DNA from: an archaeon 13_2_20CM_2_53_6
GTDB taxonomy: Archaea; Thermoproteota; Bathyarchaeia; 40CM-2-53-6
Length of the DNA: 61,259 nucleotides
Assembly: GCA_001915065.1 (NCBI GenBank)
Contig: MNDT01000020.1
Location: 1-61,259 of the forward strand
Reading direction: 5' to 3'
The position numbers and the translations under genes were made by a program. The notes beneath the pieces were generated by a model, which was not told where the DNA came from, ran no database searches, and saw only the letters and a list, made by a program, of their open reading frames with translations. Positions 3,541 to 45,709 of the stretch are shown piece by piece (within the stretch, counting starts at the first letter, position 1; every line of letters starts with the position of its first letter).

Positions 3541-4071
3541 ATGTCAAGAATCGTGTTCCTCGACTTGGAGACATCGTCTCTCGAAGCGGACGGCGGGATA
3601 ATTGTAGGAGCGGGGGTTATGTCGGAGGCTGGTGAGAGCGAATATTTCGAGGCTAAGAAGACTAGTCATGAGAAGCCTCTGCTCTCGGAGCTTCTCAAGC
3701 GGCTAGAATCCTCCGAGGTAATTGTGACCTGGAGTGGTCGAGGCTTCGACATTCCCTTCCTCACGACCCGGCTATTGAAACATTCAATGGATCCTCGTCC
3801 CGTGCTTGGTATGGTGCACCTTGATCTTAACGAGGTTGTGAAGTCTAGGCTTCGCTTGACCTTTACCTACTTGGATCACGTCTGTGACTTTTTCGGGATC
3901 AGACGCGAGAAGGGGCCAATGGGACTGGAGGTGCCGAGCTTGTTCGTCAAAGCGTTGGAGGGGGATGAGGCCGCTTTGAGGTCGATCCGAGATCACTGTC
4001 TGGATGATTTACGAGTGACCCGCGAGGTTTTCTTGAGACTCAGACCATTGCTAGAGGGGCAGCTCGCCTAG
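3541..4071 (+). CDS. YprB-like RNase H-fold (DEDD) exonuclease
   Basis: FLDLETS, GRGFDIPFL, HLDL, HCLDDL; start moved to in-frame ATG 3541. Confidence 0.8.
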   Translation: MSRIVFLDLETSSLEADGGIIVGAGVMSEAGESEYFEAKKTSHEKPLLSELLKRLESSEVIVTWSGRGFDIPFLTTRLLKHSMDPRPVLGMVHLDLNEVVKSRLRLTFTYLDHVCDFFGIRREKGPMGLEVPSLFVKALEGDEAALRSIRDHCLDDLRVTREVFLRLRPLLEGQLA

Positions 4072-4745
4072 AACACGCCGAAGGGTAGAGGAGACCCGAG
4101 GACAGTGGCGAGGATGAAGAGGATGATGAGGTAGAGGCCGAAAAGTCCTATAGTTATCAGGAGGTTCTTCTTCCATTTCTGGCTCCAGGCGATTCCGAAG
4201 GGGATTCCGACTGTGAATCCGATGACGTGGGCAATGTAGGCGACGCTTGGGTCGAAGAGTCCCTGGCCGAGAATGGACGGGTCGGTGACTATGATCGCGT
4301 TGAGGGTGAAGTAGATGATTGCCACTAGTCCCTGTGGTGCAAGAAAGAGCCAGCTGAATTTCAACGGTGACATGAGCATGACGCATGCTGCCAGGGTGAA
4401 GATTGCCGCGCTCGCGCCCAGCATCCCAGTGTCGGGGCTGTAGATACCTACTAGGGGCGGTAGTAGGAAGCTTGTGAACCCGCCGATGAAGAAGACGAGA
4501 AGATGATTGTCTCGGCCAATCATCTTCTCAAGGGTGTTGCCGAAGACGAATAGGAACGGCATGTTTCCCAGAAGATGAGCTACGCTGGCATGGACGAAGA
4601 GTGCAGTAACCAGGGTCCAGAAGCGTCCGGCCAGGAGGTTGTTGAGGCTGAAGACCAGGTTCTGGTCCGCCCAGTTCGGGTCTTGCTGCCACGCGTAGAG
4701 GCTTGCAAGCACGCACCCGAGGATGAGGAACCAGTTGACGCGCAT
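4068..4745 (-). CDS. Rhomboid intramembrane serine protease
   Basis: HxxxxHLLGN, GASAA catalytic Ser, AHVIG catalytic His, multiple TMs. Confidence 0.9.
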   Translation of the reverse strand: MRVNWFLILGCVLASLYAWQQDPNWADQNLVFSLNNLLAGRFWTLVTALFVHASVAHLLGNMPFLFVFGNTLEKMIGRDNHLLVFFIGGFTSFLLPPLVGIYSPDTGMLGASAAIFTLAACVMLMSPLKFSWLFLAPQGLVAIIYFTLNAIIVTDPSILGQGLFDPSVAYIAHVIGFTVGIPFGIAWSQKWKKNLLITIGLFGLYLIILFILATVLGSPLPFGVF

Positions 4746-5196
4746 AGATCTCGACCTTGGATAACGAAGAGTCGCGAAGTTGGGCTATTTCAGAAATATC
4801 CTACCTTGGAGCGACCAGCAATGTGCAGTCGGTGATGAGAGTCTCTCGGCGGCCATCGGACGCCTGGTAACTTGTAAATCTCTTGATTTGTAGGGTGAGA
4901 AGTTGCCGGGGGAGTCTCGAATTCCTTTCGATCGGTCCTATTGTTACATCGGCTGATGACTTTGATTGGTTTGAATACACTCATCTGGCCTGCATTTTTC
5001 GCCGATCACAAATCTTGATCAGGATATCTGCGGCAGACAATAGGCCCTGTTGTCTATCTCAGGTTCATCGAGCTTGAGAGTCCTGGTTGAGCCCATCCAA
5101 AATATTATATGCCGATAGCCGGGTTAGCGGGGAAGTGAGCGATGGATAAGTGTGGACCGCTATGCGTTGAAAATGTGGCTAATCGCGATGCTAGTC

Positions 5197-5489
5197 TACA
5201 GCTTGTTCTTCTGACCCTCTTATTGCACCGCTCGGGTGGACGAACTTCGAGGGACGCGCCTAAGCGTTATCCTTCTCACGAAGTCGAGTCTGAGCTTCAA
5301 CAGATGAGACCGAATGCTACGGGTCTCGCCCATCTGTCCGGAGTCTCGTAACTGCTTGACGGAACGTCGAGTTCCGTCGATTCATAGTGTTGGGGATAAG
5401 AAGGCCCCCAGGGAAGAAAACCCGAACCAAGAGGAGCTTTGGGCTCTCTTGGGTGGTCATCAGGTTAAGATTCCTGGGGACCCTCTGTA
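5197..5489 (-). ncRNA. Candidate large structured non-coding RNA, unknown family
   Basis: Nested helices found by hand, with G-U pairs that work on the minus strand; terminal UACAG/CUGUA stem; TATA-like TATTATAG at ~5513-5506; no credible ORF. Confidence 0.5.
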
Positions 5490-5646
5490 CCATTTCATTT
5501 CTTATCTATAATAGATTACCCCTCGTATAGATATCGCTGGATTTCGACCGGAAGAGATTTCTTTCCCTTAAAAACGGACGAATTTTCGGGTGGGATTGTT
5601 CGGACAGTTTCTTGGCTGTTGCTACATGTATGCGCTTGTACCACAA

Positions 5647-5674
5647 GACAACACAGTTGTCACAAGTCTTATAT
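5647..5674 (+). promoter_or_regulatory. Palindrome GACAAC-N3-GTTGTC followed by TATA-like TTATAT upstream of the PKD gene
   Basis: Perfect 6-3-6 inverted repeat at 5647-5661; TTATAT at 5669-5674. Confidence 0.35.
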
Positions 5675-5811
5675 CTTGTATTCAATACATAGGGCGTTTG
5701 GTCATCGGGTTGAGGATGAGTACGAGAGTTGTTTTCGGGTAAGACTCTCCGGATAGCCCTTCACGGTAAGGTTCTGTTCGCCTTCTCCCTGCCGCCGGGA
5801 GAAGGTGAGCG

Positions 5812-8800
5812 CTGAGCAAGCACACAACAAGGAGCCTTAGGGCTCTCCTCCTCTGTACGGCCGTTCTGATGAGTGCCACGCTGGCAATCCAGTTATTGGC
5901 ATTGCCGGAATCAACAACTGGAAACGGGTCGAGCTTCAACCACAGCGTCCTAGAGTCAAGCGCTTCTACTACGGTCGGGTTCAACTGTACGGACTGGAAT
6001 TGCAACCCTAGTAATGGTCAGTCTTTGACTGTGGCAGGCAACGGGACGATGGAAGTTCGACAGACGAATACCGCCTGTGGATGGAATGGGACTTACTATG
6101 ATAGCGCGGTGAGAGGTACGCCGCCCCCAGCACAAGGCGGCCCTCAAGGAACGCCTCTTCCACCCGGGCTCTCCACGGTCTCGGTACAAGTAAAGTACCT
6201 GGGAAGTAGGTCAAGCAGTTCCAGCTGTGAAGAATATCACCTATTTGTTTCAATGTATTTCCGGTTGTCTCAAAACGTGACACTGTACTGTTCAGAAGGT
6301 GGAAGAACAGAGAGCTCGAATTATCTCGATACTCAGGTAAGACTTGACAATGTTAACGGTACTGACCGACCACAGCTTTCGAGCCCTGCCTATTGTGGCT
6401 CAGCCGTGGGGGCCTGGGGTTGGAGCAACAATGTCCTTTCCCTATCTCCCGGTCAGGATGGTACACTGACAGCAAATGCAACAACACAGTGCCAGCAGGC
6501 CGAGGCTGCCTGGGGCATCTCTGGAATCCCATGCACGCTGACTGGAATAGAGATAGGGACAGAAGGCTACGGAATCTCCTCGCTAGATACGAACTGGTAC
6601 AGTGTGACATATTCCCTACAGAGCTCTGCTGTTCCTTCCGGTAGCAGTTTCGACCACATTGTCATGATCGCTATGGAAAACCAGTACTACTCGACGGTTC
6701 TCGGCACTGGGACGGGAGCTTCATGCTGTCCGTTTCTAACAAGCCTCCTTCCATACAGCGCTACTATTCCCAGCTTCCACAACTACGGAGCCAACGATTT
6801 CTCAGGGGACACCATCAGCGGCTGTTCGGCTGCCTGCTATACTGCCGAGACATCAGGAGGAACCTACGGTGTATCGGACGGTCTTGCAGGTGGAAGCGTA
6901 AGCGCGACCAACATATTCGACAGGCTGACAGGAGCAGGATTGACATGGAAGGGCTTCTGCGAGGACAACTGCCCACGCAACGCTGACCACTTCCCACTCC
7001 TACAGTACGCTGACACTTACCAGAGCACGTGCGCGGCCGCGTCATCGGAGAACTGTTTCCTCTACACCTGCACAAGCTGCACAGCGGCGGATGTCTCTGA
7101 TTCGCAGCTAATCGCAGAGCTCAACTCTCCCAGCCCAGCCAACTACATCTGGTTCACTCCAACAGATGAGCATAACATGCACAATGTCCCACCCTCATCG
7201 GGAGACGCTTATCTCAAGCAGATCCTCGTCGGAACAGGCACCGTCTCCAGTCCTTCCCCCGGTAGCATGCTCAGTACAACAGCCTTCACTTCGGGCCATA
7301 CCCTCCTCTACATCTGGTTCGACGAGTATGATCCCTCTCCAAACCTTCTCTACGAGCCAGGCATAGTCCGTTCAGGTTTCATCTCGACAGCTAACAACTA
7401 TGACGAATACGCCAGCCTCCACACCATAGAGAACAACTGGAGCCTGCTAGGTCTAAACCTTGATACCAACGCTCCTCTCATCTCAGACATTTTCAGCCCG
7501 ACTACTTCCATGTCCGCGGCTTTCACCTACACTCCACCCGTGCCTACCGCGGGAACCGCCGTGACGTTCGTGGCCTCGGCTATTGGAGGAACGCCAGTGT
7601 ACACATATTCGTGGGACTTTGGCGATGGAACAAGTGGAACAGGATCATCCAGCACACACGCCTATTCATCAGCAGGGTCATACAATGTTCTAATGACTGT
7701 CAAGGACAACGGTTCACCACAACAGACAGCACCGTCCCAACAGACCGTCACAGTCACGAGCCCACCTCCGCCTCTCAGCGCCAGCTTCACATTTAGTCCC
7801 TCATCACCTGCGACGGAACAGCAGGTCACATTCACCGCCTCATCAACTGGTGGAACTGCTCCGTACAGTTACAGCTGGTCTTTCGGCGATGGGTCGATAG
7901 GAACAGGCTCTACCTCAACGCACGCTTACTCATCCGCAGGAAGCTTCACTGTGACTCTGACTGTGAAGGATACTGGTTCGCCTCAGCAGACGGTAACGTC
8001 TCAGAAAACCGTCACAGTCACAAGTCCGCCTCCCACCCTGACCGCCAGCTTCATCTATAGTCCGTCTTCGCCCCAGACGGGTCAGCAGGTAACCTTTACC
8101 GCCTCGGCGGGTGGTGGTACAACACCCTATAGCTTCAGCTGGTCGTTTGGAGACGGATCAACCGGAACAGGCGCCTCGGTAACACACGCATACTCGTCGG
8201 CAGGGTCCTTCACTGTCACCCTGACTGTCAAAGACAGTGGTTCGCCCCAACAGACAGTCACTTCACAACAAACCGTCTCAGTCAGCAACCCTCCTCCGGC
8301 TCTGACAGCAAGCATCACCTATAGTCCGTCCTCTCCGCAGGCTGGACAGCAAGTCACGTTTACCGCTTCAGCCAGTGGTGGAACCGCGCCCTATTCTTTC
8401 ACATGGGACTTCGGTGACGGCTCAACCGGAACAGGCTCGTCTGCTGCTCACACCTACTCGTCGGCGGGAACCTTTAACGTCGCTTTGACCACCAGAGATA
8501 GTGGTTCTCCTCAACAGACTGCGAATTCGCAACAGCCTGTGACTGTGACCATCACCACTCTAACTGCCAGCTTCAGCTATGATCCTTCCTCACCCCAAGT
8601 TGGACAAGTTGTAACGTTCACAGCCTCTGCCAGCGGCGGGACGTCTCCGTATGCCTTTAGCTGGAATTTTGGCGACGGATCCACGGCTGTCGGCTCATCA
8701 GCTACCCACGCTTATTCCTCTCCAGGCAGCTTTAATGCTGTTCTAATAGTCAACGATAGCGGTGTTCCAAACCAGACGGCTAGTTCTCGCCAGACCGTCA

Positions 8801-10686
8801 GCGTCACTCCTCCTCTATTGACAGCCAATTTCACCTACAGTCCATCCTCACCACAGGCCGGACAGCAGATCACATTCACAGCCTCAGAATTGGGAGGGAC
8901 AGCACCCTACTCCTTCAACTGGACGTTTGGTGACTTATCAAATGCTACAGGGTCAACGGCAGCTTACACATACTCATCGACAGGAAATTTCAGCGTCACA
9001 CTGACCATCAAGGATAGTGGCTCGTCACAGCAGACGGCCACCTCCTCCACAACAATAGATGTCTCTCCGACGCCTACTTCTACGGCTGTAGCTTGTCCAG
9101 GAACGGGCATCGTCAGTGTAAGCCTGATATGCAGTGTCACAGTCGCCGACACCGCGTTTGGGATTATCAGCATGCCAACCGGTTTCGTCTCGGTTAATTC
9201 GAGTATCGGTTGCTTCCTCTCTAGCGGCTTATGCACTGTGAACATAACCTCATCAGTCTCAGGTAGCCTCGACGTATCCGCAAGCTACGGAGGAGATGCC
9301 GGACATCTCGCCAGCATCAGTCCTCCCGTACTAGTAAGGATCAATAGTCGTGAGACTTCAATGGTGGTTACTTGTGCTCCGTCGACTCTGACGCTAGGCC
9401 AGGACACTACCTGTTCCGCTACTGTGACTGACACGTCGCCTGGTATGACTAATACCCCATCCGGCAACGTGACCTTCACTCCTATCGGCGTCTTTGCACT
9501 AACGGGCACTGGAGCTTCGGCCAGCTGCTCAACAAACATCGCTACAACTGCCGTAGGGAAGCTGTCGATCTCCGCCGCCTACCTCGGTGACTCGAATCAC
9601 AATGCCAGTTCGGGAATCACGACGGTCGATGTGCTCCCGCTTCCGCCACCACCCTTCGTGGCCGATCTTGCCTTCATTCCCAACAGCCCTGTAACGGGTC
9701 AAACGGTCAACTTCACAGCGACCGTTACCGGCGGATCGCCCCCCTACACCTACTCTTGGAGCTTCGGCGACGGCACCATAGACTCTGGAAGCCCTACCAG
9801 CCACACGTATGAAAACGTCAACACCTACTCCGTCGTCCTGATCGTGACGGACGCGAACCGAACAACCTTCTCTGACACTAAATTACTCGCCGTAAAAGTC
9901 ACACCAAATCCCCCCATTATCCTTACAGTTCCAAGCAACCAGTCGATCGATCACGGTTCGAATCTAACATTCAACGTGACAGCGGTGGAGGACTCGCCAC
10001 AGCAGATTAGCATATCATGTGTGTCCTGCCCTAGTCTAGGCGCGGATTTCACATTCAACAGCGGCCCCGGTGCCGCGTATGGAACGTTCAGCTGGACCCC
10101 TTCCGAAGCGCAAGCCCCGGGAATATACTTTGTAGTCTTGTCCTCAACGGATGGAACACAGATCGTAAACGCGACCGCTACAGTAACCGTCAACGAGTAT
10201 AACGTACCCCCGGTTTTACATGTCCCTGACACTCTTACCGTCCGGGACGGAGAGACCCTTCAGTTTACAGTGAACGCAACAGACTCTGATGCTCCATTCG
10301 AGAATGTCACTTTGACAGCCATCGGGCTTCCAGATGGCGCGTCGTTCGACCCCGAGACAGGGGTCTTCTACTGGCCCATCCAAGGAGTCCAGCCTGGCCC
10401 GTACACTCTCACTTTCACGGCCACGGATAATGGCGTTCCGGCTCTCCAAGATTCGCAGATCGTCGTAGTCCATGTGAATAATGGGAACGGCCGATGTTTC
10501 ATCTGCGAGATGTTTCTTGAATCGCAGCTGGGCGTGAACCCGAGCCCATTGATCCTCATCCTGCGGGCGATGGTTGCGTTGATGGGATTTCTCTCGGTAA
10601 TAACAATGAAATATTTGAAAGATCATGGACGAGAGAGGGTCAAACGCACGGTCCAACATTCTGGCGATGTCGAGAACGCATCATAA
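5812..10686 (+). CDS. Large membrane-anchored surface protein: phosphoesterase-like domain, 7 PKD domains, Ig-like and cadherin-like domains, C-terminal TM
   Basis: FDHIVMIAMEN and IWFDE motifs; repeated Y/FxWxFGDG; LPDGASFDPETGVFYW; in-frame CTG at 5812 completes a signal peptide (ORF track start 5869). Confidence 0.85.
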   Translation: MSKHTTRSLRALLLCTAVLMSATLAIQLLALPESTTGNGSSFNHSVLESSASTTVGFNCTDWNCNPSNGQSLTVAGNGTMEVRQTNTACGWNGTYYDSAVRGTPPPAQGGPQGTPLPPGLSTVSVQVKYLGSRSSSSSCEEYHLFVSMYFRLSQNVTLYCSEGGRTESSNYLDTQVRLDNVNGTDRPQLSSPAYCGSAVGAWGWSNNVLSLSPGQDGTLTANATTQCQQAEAAWGISGIPCTLTGIEIGTEGYGISSLDTNWYSVTYSLQSSAVPSGSSFDHIVMIAMENQYYSTVLGTGTGASCCPFLTSLLPYSATIPSFHNYGANDFSGDTISGCSAACYTAETSGGTYGVSDGLAGGSVSATNIFDRLTGAGLTWKGFCEDNCPRNADHFPLLQYADTYQSTCAAASSENCFLYTCTSCTAADVSDSQLIAELNSPSPANYIWFTPTDEHNMHNVPPSSGDAYLKQILVGTGTVSSPSPGSMLSTTAFTSGHTLLYIWFDEYDPSPNLLYEPGIVRSGFISTANNYDEYASLHTIENNWSLLGLNLDTNAPLISDIFSPTTSMSAAFTYTPPVPTAGTAVTFVASAIGGTPVYTYSWDFGDGTSGTGSSSTHAYSSAGSYNVLMTVKDNGSPQQTAPSQQTVTVTSPPPPLSASFTFSPSSPATEQQVTFTASSTGGTAPYSYSWSFGDGSIGTGSTSTHAYSSAGSFTVTLTVKDTGSPQQTVTSQKTVTVTSPPPTLTASFIYSPSSPQTGQQVTFTASAGGGTTPYSFSWSFGDGSTGTGASVTHAYSSAGSFTVTLTVKDSGSPQQTVTSQQTVSVSNPPPALTASITYSPSSPQAGQQVTFTASASGGTAPYSFTWDFGDGSTGTGSSAAHTYSSAGTFNVALTTRDSGSPQQTANSQQPVTVTITTLTASFSYDPSSPQVGQVVTFTASASGGTSPYAFSWNFGDGSTAVGSSATHAYSSPGSFNAVLIVNDSGVPNQTASSRQTVSVTPPLLTANFTYSPSSPQAGQQITFTASELGGTAPYSFNWTFGDLSNATGSTAAYTYSSTGNFSVTLTIKDSGSSQQTATSSTTIDVSPTPTSTAVACPGTGIVSVSLICSVTVADTAFGIISMPTGFVSVNSSIGCFLSSGLCTVNITSSVSGSLDVSASYGGDAGHLASISPPVLVRINSRETSMVVTCAPSTLTLGQDTTCSATVTDTSPGMTNTPSGNVTFTPIGVFALTGTGASASCSTNIATTAVGKLSISAAYLGDSNHNASSGITTVDVLPLPPPPFVADLAFIPNSPVTGQTVNFTATVTGGSPPYTYSWSFGDGTIDSGSPTSHTYENVNTYSVVLIVTDANRTTFSDTKLLAVKVTPNPPIILTVPSNQSIDHGSNLTFNVTAVEDSPQQISISCVSCPSLGADFTFNSGPGAAYGTFSWTPSEAQAPGIYFVVLSSTDGTQIVNATATVTVNEYNVPPVLHVPDTLTVRDGETLQFTVNATDSDAPFENVTLTAIGLPDGASFDPETGVFYWPIQGVQPGPYTLTFTATDNGVPALQDSQIVVVHVNNGNGRCFICEMFLESQLGVNPSPLILILRAMVALMGFLSVITMKYLKDHGRERVKRTVQHSGDVENAS
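7510..9065 (+). repeat. Six tandem PKD-domain repeats (258-264 bp period)
   Basis: LxASF/IxYSPSSP-type units start at 7774, 8038, 8302, 8560 and 8818, plus a first unit at ~7510. Confidence 0.85.
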
Positions 10687-45599: not shown

Positions 45600-45709
45600 T
45601 GGCGCCGGGAGTGGGATTTGAACCCACGAGGGCCTAAGGCCCATCGGATTTCCACACCCGGACCTCAGGTTTAGCAATCCGACGCCATACCTGGCTAGGC
45701 GATCCCGGC
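45600..45709 (-). tRNA. tRNA-Ser(GCT) with 22-nt intron at 37/38 (45650-45671), CCA encoded
   Basis: GCCGGGA/TCCCGGC acceptor stem, TCGGA/TCCGA anticodon stem, long variable arm, GGTTCAAATCC, BHB geometry. Confidence 0.93.

Follow-up and report, generated by a model that had tools for sequence, protein, structure and literature searches.

In the stretch of DNA analysed here (the window, 61,259 nucleotides (nt) of contig MNDT01000020.1 from archaeon 13_2_20CM_2_53_6, a member of the Bathyarchaeia), a 1.1-kb gap is flanked on one side by a rhomboid protease gene and on the other by the gene of a giant surface protein with PKD/Ig repeats, which counts 1605 aa from its first ATG at 5869 (+). An earlier examination of the sequence, hereafter the original prediction, placed in this gap a candidate minus-strand structured RNA of ~295 nt with several domains (5197-5489). 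Of this proposed RNA, only the first ~80 bases form a conserved, covarying hairpin. The comparative evidence suggests, with a probability of about 0.6, that the hairpin is the structured 5' domain of a lineage-specific base-pairing small RNA (sRNA) that would act on the surface-protein mRNA of soil Bathyarchaeia. The features of the locus are collected in Table 1. The genome to which the window belongs (G000) has 1.79 Mb and is 80% complete.

Table 1. Features of the hairpin locus and its flanking genes, with coordinates in the window.
Feature	Position	Strand	Basis
Rhomboid protease gene	4068-4745	minus	PF01694 1.8e-24
Variable region 3' of the hairpin, possible tail of the same transcript, holding the other proposed helices	5150-5401	minus	z -0.17; conserved only in close relatives
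RNA-library contigs	5267-5453, 5292-5440, 5241-5395, 5164-5296, 5199-5296, 5150-5321		
Conserved 82-nt hairpin	5402-5483	minus	Minimum free energy (MFE), z -4.31; covariance model R1, 88.4 bits; covariation in 16/28 pairs
P1, 11 bp	5473-5483/5402-5412	minus	
Junction J1/2, ending in UCUU	5467-5472	minus	
P2, AACCUGA/UCGGGUU, including a U-G pair	5460-5466/5419-5425	minus	
7-nt 5' bulge UGACCAC, facing a single U	5453-5459	minus	
P3, CCAAGAG/CUCUUGG	5446-5452/5427-5433	minus	
Variable apical stem-loop	5434-5445	minus	
Proposed seed, UCUU + AACCUGAUGACCA (3' end of J1/2, 5' strand of P2, bulge)	5454-5470	minus	Invariant 13-mer; predicted 17-bp duplex
TATA-like box TATTATAG of the small-RNA gene	5506-5513	minus	Sequence
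TATA box CTTATATC of the surface-protein gene	5668-5675	+	Box conserved 20-24 nt upstream of the leader motif, 15/15 loci
Leader motif UUGGUCAUCGGGUU + GAGG, seed-complementary, predicted mRNA 5' end	5698-5715 (motif 5698-5711)	+	
Leader hairpin CCUUCUCCC/GGGAGAAGG, 3' strand Shine-Dalgarno-like, 6-10 nt before a conserved CUG(A)	5781-5805	+	RNAalifold
Giant PKD/Ig-repeat surface-protein gene	5812-10686	+	Pfam PKD_4 2.3e-99 and others; open frame 1625 aa

All pairs listed in the 11 helices of the original prediction can form in the window as standard or G-U pairs, and on the minus strand the 293 nt fold better than almost all shuffles (-106.8 kcal/mol, z -3.00, 1/200 shuffles as good, compared with z -1.67 and 14/200 on the plus strand). 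The expected excess in folding energy is thus present, and it comes only from the long arm. Taken alone, the arm (5402-5483) reaches z -4.31 on the minus strand (0/200 shuffles as good) and z -1.88 on the plus strand (9/200), while the remainder (5197-5400) gives z -0.17 (86/200) and z -1.37 (18/200), respectively. Comparison with six close relatives, 90.9-100% identical to the window, gives a similar picture: the closing stem 5485-5489/5197-5201 has an A-C mismatch in 2/6 of them, helix 5394-5399/5267-5272 loses two pairs (in 4/6 and 2/6), and the arm 5249-5253/5215-5219 loses two pairs, each in 2/6. Helices 5345-5351/5276-5282 and 5235-5238/5226-5229 show one-sided, wobble-compatible changes only, 5332-5338/5299-5305 and 5322-5327/5306-5311 show no variation at all, and the 8-bp hairpin 5371-5378/5358-5365 persists apart from a single break in 1/6, so that the arm 5276-5351 and the 8-bp hairpin are preserved almost without informative variation. 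This perfect 8-bp hairpin (GACGGAAC-loop-GUUCCGUC, 5358-5378) has a 5-nt loop that is inverted between the window and its five closest relatives (TCGAC and GTCGA); RNA-library contigs carry the other loop form, a small inversion polymorphism inside a palindrome.

An RNA of ~295 nt that functions by its overall architecture, be it as a ribozyme, a scaffold or a large cis-regulatory leader, is very unlikely on these data. All of its helices can be drawn, the arm 5276-5351 accumulates two wobble-compatible changes and no breaks, and RNA-library contigs over 5150-5453 (described below) mean that a transcript of about that length may exist. Against this, the folding of 5197-5400 is at the level of shuffles, three helices lose pairs even though the relatives concerned are 91-98% identical, and the region cannot be aligned in other lineages of the genus, where the hairpin remains 80-100% identical; past the near-identical relatives, the long arm is the only alignable part of 5197-5489. 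The search for covarying homologues upheld the long arm as a genuine covarying structure and found the remaining domains unconserved in the rest of the genus, and the multi-domain architecture is not supported. A leader of the rhomboid gene is also unlikely, because the gene downstream of the hairpin varies by lineage (rhomboid in two loci, another family in four and a third family in one), whereas the surface-protein gene is constant. If the transcript does extend to ~300 nt, its 3' part may be a fast-evolving tail rather than a set of conserved domains.

The distribution of the hairpin was studied by sequence similarity and by covariance models. BLAST searches with 5100-5600 against 40 relatives gave matches in 14 of 21 genomes from the same genus and in none of the 19 from outside it and, except in one 94%-identical relative, these matches were confined to ~5400-5490. 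Alignment of untrimmed hairpins with MAFFT and RNAalifold missed P1, because the junction lengths differ, and the covariance model was seeded from nine consistently aligned rows, followed by realignment. In a family set of 59 genomes this model recovered 21 copies in 16 genomes, with lengths of 72-84 nt across loci: by genus, 14/21 in g1, 1/3 in the sister genus g2, 0/10 in g15, 0/23 in g3 and 0/1 in g4. No copy was found with it in 46 genomes from nine other families of the order, and the more sensitive model R2, applied to 22 genomes of the genus, revealed no further or divergent copies in the seven that lack the hairpin. A pattern scan of metagenomes kept at least 120 stretches; among the 80 listed, on which R2 was run, 24 pass the model as true hairpins. 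Contigs that match the element pattern exactly come from metagenome-assembled genomes of Candidatus Bathyarchaeota/Bathyarchaeia in 16 of 18 cases, the other two being labelled as bacteria.

Covariation within the hairpin is pronounced. The model-fitted alignment contains 21 sequences, 18 of them distinct, and 96.9% of its pairing cells are able to pair, compared with 86.6% in shuffles. Changes on both sides occur in 16 of 28 pairs, where 5.8 are expected, a number reached by none of 500 shuffles, and controls with slid partners do not exceed 62% pairing. Because this alignment was fitted to the model, the recovery of the helices by single-sequence MFE folding is also cited here: P1 and P2 appear in 19/19 homologues and P3 in 18/19. 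In a divergent paralogue (G012:C67:20939-21018) the P3 strands CCAAGAG/CUCUUGG are replaced by CCGUCGC/GCGACGG, which are again complementary. The strand proposed originally, on the grounds of G-U pairs that exist only in the minus sense, is confirmed by the covariance model, which scores 87.6 bits on the minus strand and 23.5 on the plus strand. A small open reading frame (ORF) of 58 aa that overlaps the hairpin (5317-5493) was rejected as an explanation: hairpin lengths differ by non-multiples of three, and several lineages have no ATG.

The TATA-like TATTATAG noted in the original prediction lies at 5513-5506 of the minus strand, and 22 nt separate its end from the hairpin's first G. Across the 19 loci inspected, a TATA-like octamer always ends 21-25 nt before this G, in the forms TATTATAG/TATTATAT (8 loci), TTCTTATAC (7) and TTGTTATTAG (4). 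The data support an unrecognised non-coding RNA on the minus strand that has an archaeal-type promoter of its own and no counterpart in Rfam. At gathering thresholds, Rfam 15 finds only a tRNA in the whole window, and with E up to 10 the interval 4700-5900 yields four weak matches (10.5-19 bits, for cut-offs of 40-53.5), none on 5402-5483, so that no family is reached on the proposed RNA. The likeness in size to signal recognition particle (SRP) or RNase P RNA is irrelevant, because the archaeal SRP and RNase P RNAs (RF01857 and RF00373), of which a genome normally has one copy each, are found elsewhere in the genome above the Rfam cut-offs, on other contigs (G000:C20:23873-24191, 154.9 bits, and G000:C41:32311-32632, 139.5 bits, respectively). 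The tRNA match (45603-45709, minus) spans 107 nt for a 71-position model, with 46.8 bits; it presumably marks a tRNA gene with an intron, a common situation in archaea.

Regarding expression, four soil metatranscriptome runs from one study were available, in which contigs have a depth of 2-6 and carry no strand information. Six RNA-library contigs from three of the four runs tile 5150-5453 (Table 1); one of them, an exact match to 5267-5453, links the 3' half of the hairpin to the downstream tail. Further contigs span 5492-6083. This coverage is compatible with a transcript of ~300 nt, as originally predicted, although the 3' two-thirds of such a transcript show neither conservation nor folding beyond chance. 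The intervals 4202-5110 and 6121-6625 have no RNA-library contig, which proves nothing and is not used as evidence.

A possible function, which the original prediction did not see, is suggested by the bulge, whose sequence complements the start of the mRNA of the neighbouring surface protein. One strand of P2 (the 5' strand) and the 7-nt bulge together make up an invariant 13-mer, AACCUGAUGACCA, which is complementary to UGGUCAUC(A/G)GGUU at the predicted 5' end of that mRNA. In an alignment of the whole intergenic region from eight genomes, AACC(U/C)GAUGACCA recurs on the same strand ~250 nt upstream. In the window, the leader motif lies ~22 nt past the TATA box of the surface-protein gene, and in all 15 genome loci that have the second copy, (U/C)GGUCAUC(A/G)GGUU is found at a distance of 20-24 nt from the TATA box that precedes it, in the sense orientation of a PKD-type gene. 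From this distance to a conserved TATA box, the motif is predicted to form the first bases of the mRNA. Comparing 14 distinct hairpin/leader pairs, 177 of 182 core cells are Watson-Crick, four are G-U and one is a terminal mismatch. The exact 13-mer occurs once in G000, where 0.05 occurrences are expected, and this genome has no complementary site other than the leader; two further one-mismatch matches are sense-strand coding sequence.

The hairpin and the leader motif also occur together. Within the genus, counting G000, the motif is present in 15/15 genomes with the hairpin and in 0/7 without it, and G041 has both. Among other genomes of the family, 2/36 have a lone match, about the rate of the reversed-pattern control (nine matches in 59 genomes). 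In metagenomes, the motif stands at -145 to -229, in divergent arrangement, in 17 of the 20 hairpin loci with 250 nt or more of upstream sequence. Among the genome loci, twelve have the two genes in divergent and three in tandem order; in the tandem loci the motif is turned round as DNA, so that it again lies on the sense strand of the PKD-type ORF. Complementarity at the RNA level is kept in the divergent arrangement (groups 1 and 3, and G041), in the three tandem loci, in a convergent one 8 kb apart (G012), and in G002, where a leader of the same architecture is on a different contig. In G001, G008, G017 and G018 (for example in L060, G018:C6:33000-48000), two hairpin genes ~8 kb apart flank a 1907-aa PKD gene. 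One copy is divergent from the PKD gene and has the leader motif; the other is located downstream, between the thymidylate kinase gene that follows it and a 179-aa ORF and a DUF3147 gene that precede it, with no leader nearby.

The repeated 13-19 bp could instead be a double-stranded DNA operator for a transcription factor, the RNA complementarity being a by-product. The predicted transcription start of the PKD gene falls within the motif, which is the classic position of a repressor site in archaea, and the intergenic region contains other conserved boxes (GCATCGCGAT, CCATCGCTC and CAGCGATATC) that mark it as holding likely protein sites; in addition, an island of G012 with variant repeats encodes its own MarR/winged helix-turn-helix (wHTH) protein, which could be a matching variant factor. 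An operator nevertheless leaves unexplained the covarying P1, the apical stem, the variant P3 and the G-U pairs that exist only in the minus sense. Moreover, passing from divergent to tandem gene order flips the motif as DNA and keeps it complementary as RNA, four of the five core cells that differ between copies are G-U-compatible, and main-type loci have no conserved adjacent regulator gene. Altogether, an operator is an unlikely explanation.

The divergent paralogue of G012 provides a natural variant of the pair. Its seed is GCCUGAGUACCAG, and the matching site, ~8 kb away on the opposite strand of the same contig, consists of a TATA box, 22 nt and then UUGGUACUCAGGCAU-GAGAAG..GGAAAUUUGG, a continuation that resembles group-2 leaders. 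The change from AUG to AGU in the hairpin is thus matched by a change from CAU to ACU in the leader. Predicted duplexes reach -31.3 kcal/mol for the variant cognate pair and -27.8 for the main-type one, compared with -15.5 and -19.4 for the cross pairs. The gene behind the variant leader encodes a tyrosine integrase of 432 aa (PF00589 3.4e-8; phrog_1 2.3e-7). No new seed variant was found by regular expression in the kept metagenome stretches (at least 120), of which 36 have the main-type seed and the rest look like chance coding matches. The surrounding region of ~8 kb (G012:C67:20939-29182; L224, L061, L064) comprises 13 ORFs without Pfam or PHROG matches, the MarR/wHTH gene and the tyrosine integrase, and is bounded by a 19-nt direct repeat with 18/19 identical positions, one copy of which is the seed of the divergent hairpin; it looks like an integrated mobile element.

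The same region invites another explanation, in which the two copies are recombination sites, either attachment (att)-type repeats of an element that targets the hairpin gene or sites for promoter inversion or excision (phase variation). The G012 copies are direct repeats (18/19 positions) around ~8 kb with an integrase beside one of them, and the gene body of the surface protein has been replaced between near-identical relatives (homology ends at ~5892 and the proteins are 48% identical). An integrase is found near one locus only, however, and main-type repeats are 145-257 bp apart with just two promoters between them. Divergent loci have the sites as direct repeats and the three tandem ones as inverted repeats, so that orientation is not constant and recombination would lead to deletion in one case and to inversion in the other. 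The integrase gene has its TATA box beyond the segment enclosed by the repeats, with the 22-nt spacing that PKD leaders also show, and its leader continues with GAGAAG..GGAAAUUUGG, as in group-2 leaders. A scan of viral contigs with a degenerate hairpin pattern gave 15 matches and no real hairpin; the only one that the model reported at E up to 1 (15.8 bits) is coding sequence of an unrelated contig. Recombination sites are thus quite unlikely. Either they or an operator would also account for the presence of two matching copies, but neither accounts for the RNA covariation, the strand-specific G-U pairs, the orientation flip or the inconsistency between direct and inverted repeats.

A base-pairing sRNA would work as follows. 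The hairpin RNA would be transcribed from its own TATA box and would use as seed AACCUGAUGACCA, optionally extended by UCUU, to pair with the first ~13-17 nt of the long PKD leader. Pairing would start at the single-stranded bulge UGACCAC with the 5' end of the mRNA and then extend into P2, ousting the imperfect copy of the target that the hairpin itself carries (UGGU-UCGGGUU). In agreement with such a role, the predicted probability of being unpaired is 0.48-1.0 for the bulge and 1.0 for UCUU in J1/2, and the 17-bp seed/leader duplex is predicted at -27.8 kcal/mol, with a cost of 8.7 kcal/mol for opening the seed. The resulting duplex of 13-17 bp would alter the fate of the mRNA, through its stability or through the folding of the leader around the Shine-Dalgarno hairpin. 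This leader hairpin changes three pairs on both sides in an RNAalifold consensus of 21 leaders, in which UC(A/G)G of the 5' motif may pair with the conserved start CUGA, and GAGG with the anti-Shine-Dalgarno strand; these columns are invariant and the consensus energy is -2.56 kcal/mol. The data support the structure of the hairpin, its conservation and covariation, its strand, the promoter spacing, the complementarity, the co-occurrence and the co-location; from them we infer the production of both RNAs as predicted, their pairing in the cell and an effect on the mRNA, which could be of either sign.

Several observations weigh against a base-pairing sRNA. The net predicted gain of the cofold over the two folded RNAs is small (ddG -3.3 kcal/mol). 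The target is 100-170 nt from the start codon, a distance at which the effect would not be a simple block of the ribosome site. Both seed and target are nearly invariant, so that the case for pairing rests on a single compensatory variant pair. This sole compensatory pair also resembles the direct repeat at the borders of an integrase-bearing island, possibly an integrated element, and is therefore taken as supportive and not decisive. Some hairpin copies have no leader nearby, namely the second copies in G001, G008, G017 and G018, together with L110, L123 and L166. The RNA-library contigs are of low depth, strand-less, derived from a single study and possibly due to DNA carry-over, and one of them (5492-5873) crosses both predicted promoters, which is unexpected in a simple picture of two transcripts. 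Finally, P3 is invariant in the main type and yet has no role in the pairing. Two computations added little: full-length duplexfold of hairpin and leader was uninformative, with 9/1000 shuffles as good, and a crude test for extra pairing between variable tail and variable cognate leader (RNAduplex on 200-nt pieces) gave no signal (means of -84.5 kcal/mol for cognate and -83.9 for non-cognate pairs).

The invariance of P3 could also be taken to indicate an RNA that binds a protein or is otherwise self-contained (a decoy or a stability element, for example), whose complementarity stems from an inverted duplication of the leader and not from present-day pairing. The 3' strand of the hairpin, UGGU-UCGGGUU, is indeed an imperfect copy of the leader UGGUCAUCGGGUU. 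A historical duplication, though, would not hold 177 of 182 core cells Watson-Crick across lineages with flanks diverged to ~60% identity, nor would it co-vary in the G012 paralogue, and this explanation is the least probable of those considered here.

The surface-protein gene and the intergenic region present further distinctive features. The frame of the gene opens just past a TGA at 5806-5808 (+), and its first canonical in-frame start, the ATG at 5869, would deprive the protein of its charged N-region and of half its hydrophobic signal sequence (LSKHTTRSLRALLLCTAVLMSATLAI). At 5812, 6-10 nt past a Shine-Dalgarno-like GGAGA(AGGUGA), there is a CUG, and CUGA is conserved in 21/21 aligned leaders; this CUG is a possible non-canonical start codon. 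G000 and G009 (G009:C211) share 91-94% identity over the intergenic region and the first codons, nucleotide homology ends at ~5892, and the N-terminal domains of the neighbouring surface proteins are 48% identical. The sequences suggest that one gene body has taken the place of another while promoter, leader and signal peptide stayed conserved. In G000 the N-terminal domain has 21 matches, as part of a large paralogous family. On the minus strand, 5095-5113, 5138-5150 and 5180-5196 hold a second conserved TATA element, CATATAATATTTTGGATG, which is probably the promoter of the downstream gene, and conserved boxes: CATATAATATTTTGGATG is preceded by TAGCATCGCGATTGAC (with the palindrome ATCGCGAT) and CCATCGCTCAC, conserved in 8/8 group-1 loci, and a related box, CAGCGATATC, is found upstream of the small-RNA promoter at ~5530-5545. 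The boxes TAGCATCGCGATTGAC, CCATCGCTCAC and CAGCGATATC are likely transcription-factor sites.

Bathyarchaeia are abundant and uncultured, and a literature search, whose reach did not extend to supplementary files, found no work on their regulatory RNAs. Comparative genomics alone has led here to a small RNA and its likely single target, a surface protein of 1,600-1,900 residues, and the hairpin/leader pair offers a testable handle on the control of cell-surface display in these archaea; a short seed/leader pair with one natural re-keyed variant is easily tested. As a more speculative and rather doubtful extension, Bathyarchaeia might carry a portable key-and-lock riboregulatory module, with the bulge-seed hairpin RNA as key and, as lock, a 5'-terminal leader located one promoter-spacing past the TATA box. 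The host version would control one hypervariable giant adhesin among ~20 paralogues, and a re-keyed, orthogonal version (AGU/ACU) would control the integrase of a mobile element. If true, the module would be natural evidence that specificity can be reprogrammed by paired changes in seed and leader.

Comparison with known RNAs separates the hairpin from several structured families. Box C/D sRNAs have a C box (RUGAUGA) near the 5' end and a D box (CUGA) near the 3' end, which form a k-turn, together with C'/D' boxes. The CUGAUGA of the hairpin (5456-5462, minus) is C-box-like, but its 3' strand CUCUUGGUUCGGGUU has no CUGA and no GA; the hairpin also differs in length and architecture, and C/D families have no match to it at E up to 10. 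Box H/ACA sRNAs, characterised by an ACA/ANA box that immediately follows the lower stem and by a k-turn or k-loop in the upper one, were likewise rejected: in 19 loci no ACA is found at a fixed place 3' of P1, where the sequence is pyrimidine-rich and variable, and there are no tandem G-A pairs. The hammerhead ribozyme, in which CUGANGA, GAAA and a cleavage-site triplet surround a three-way junction, shares a CUGAUGA beside helices, but the hairpin is unbranched and has no GAAA, third helix, cleavage-site context or Rfam hit. The ACCA of the bulge as a mimic of the tRNA acceptor end, and GGUUCGGG as a T-loop-like element, are resemblances that no test supports.

From the perspective of mode of action, two groups of systems can be compared with the pair. 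In bacterial antisense RNAs of plasmids and toxin systems (CopA/CopT, RNAI/RNAII and hok/sok), pairing begins at an exposed loop and then propagates. The likeness is that a short single-stranded element would nucleate the pairing and that an intramolecular helix must open; the difference is that those RNAs are fully complementary cis-antisense transcripts, whereas the bathyarchaeial genes do not overlap and their complementarity is of 13-17 nt. Archaeal integrative elements, for their part, use attachment sites of the tRNA-gene type, a situation with a parallel in G012, where a small structured-RNA gene and an integrase-side site share a direct repeat flanking an island of ORFs. This concerns one locus; ~30 other loci have their repeats 145-610 bp apart, in either orientation, with no mobile genes between them.

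The closest likeness is to archaeal base-pairing small regulatory RNAs, represented by sRNA162 of Methanosarcina mazei (PMC3510493; review PMC4152357). The likeness would be that of a small RNA that is transcribed from a promoter of its own, shows complementarity to the 5' region of a specific mRNA encoded close by, and acts by antisense pairing. Relative to sRNA162, the hairpin RNA has no similarity in sequence or structure, its proposed seed is placed in an internal 7-nt bulge and a helix strand, its predicted target is the very 5' end of a leader of more than 100 nt and not the ribosome site, and it is limited to one genus and one sister-genus genome of uncultured Bathyarchaeia. The hairpin RNA belongs to no described family, and its proposed mode of action resembles that of archaeal and bacterial base-pairing sRNAs.

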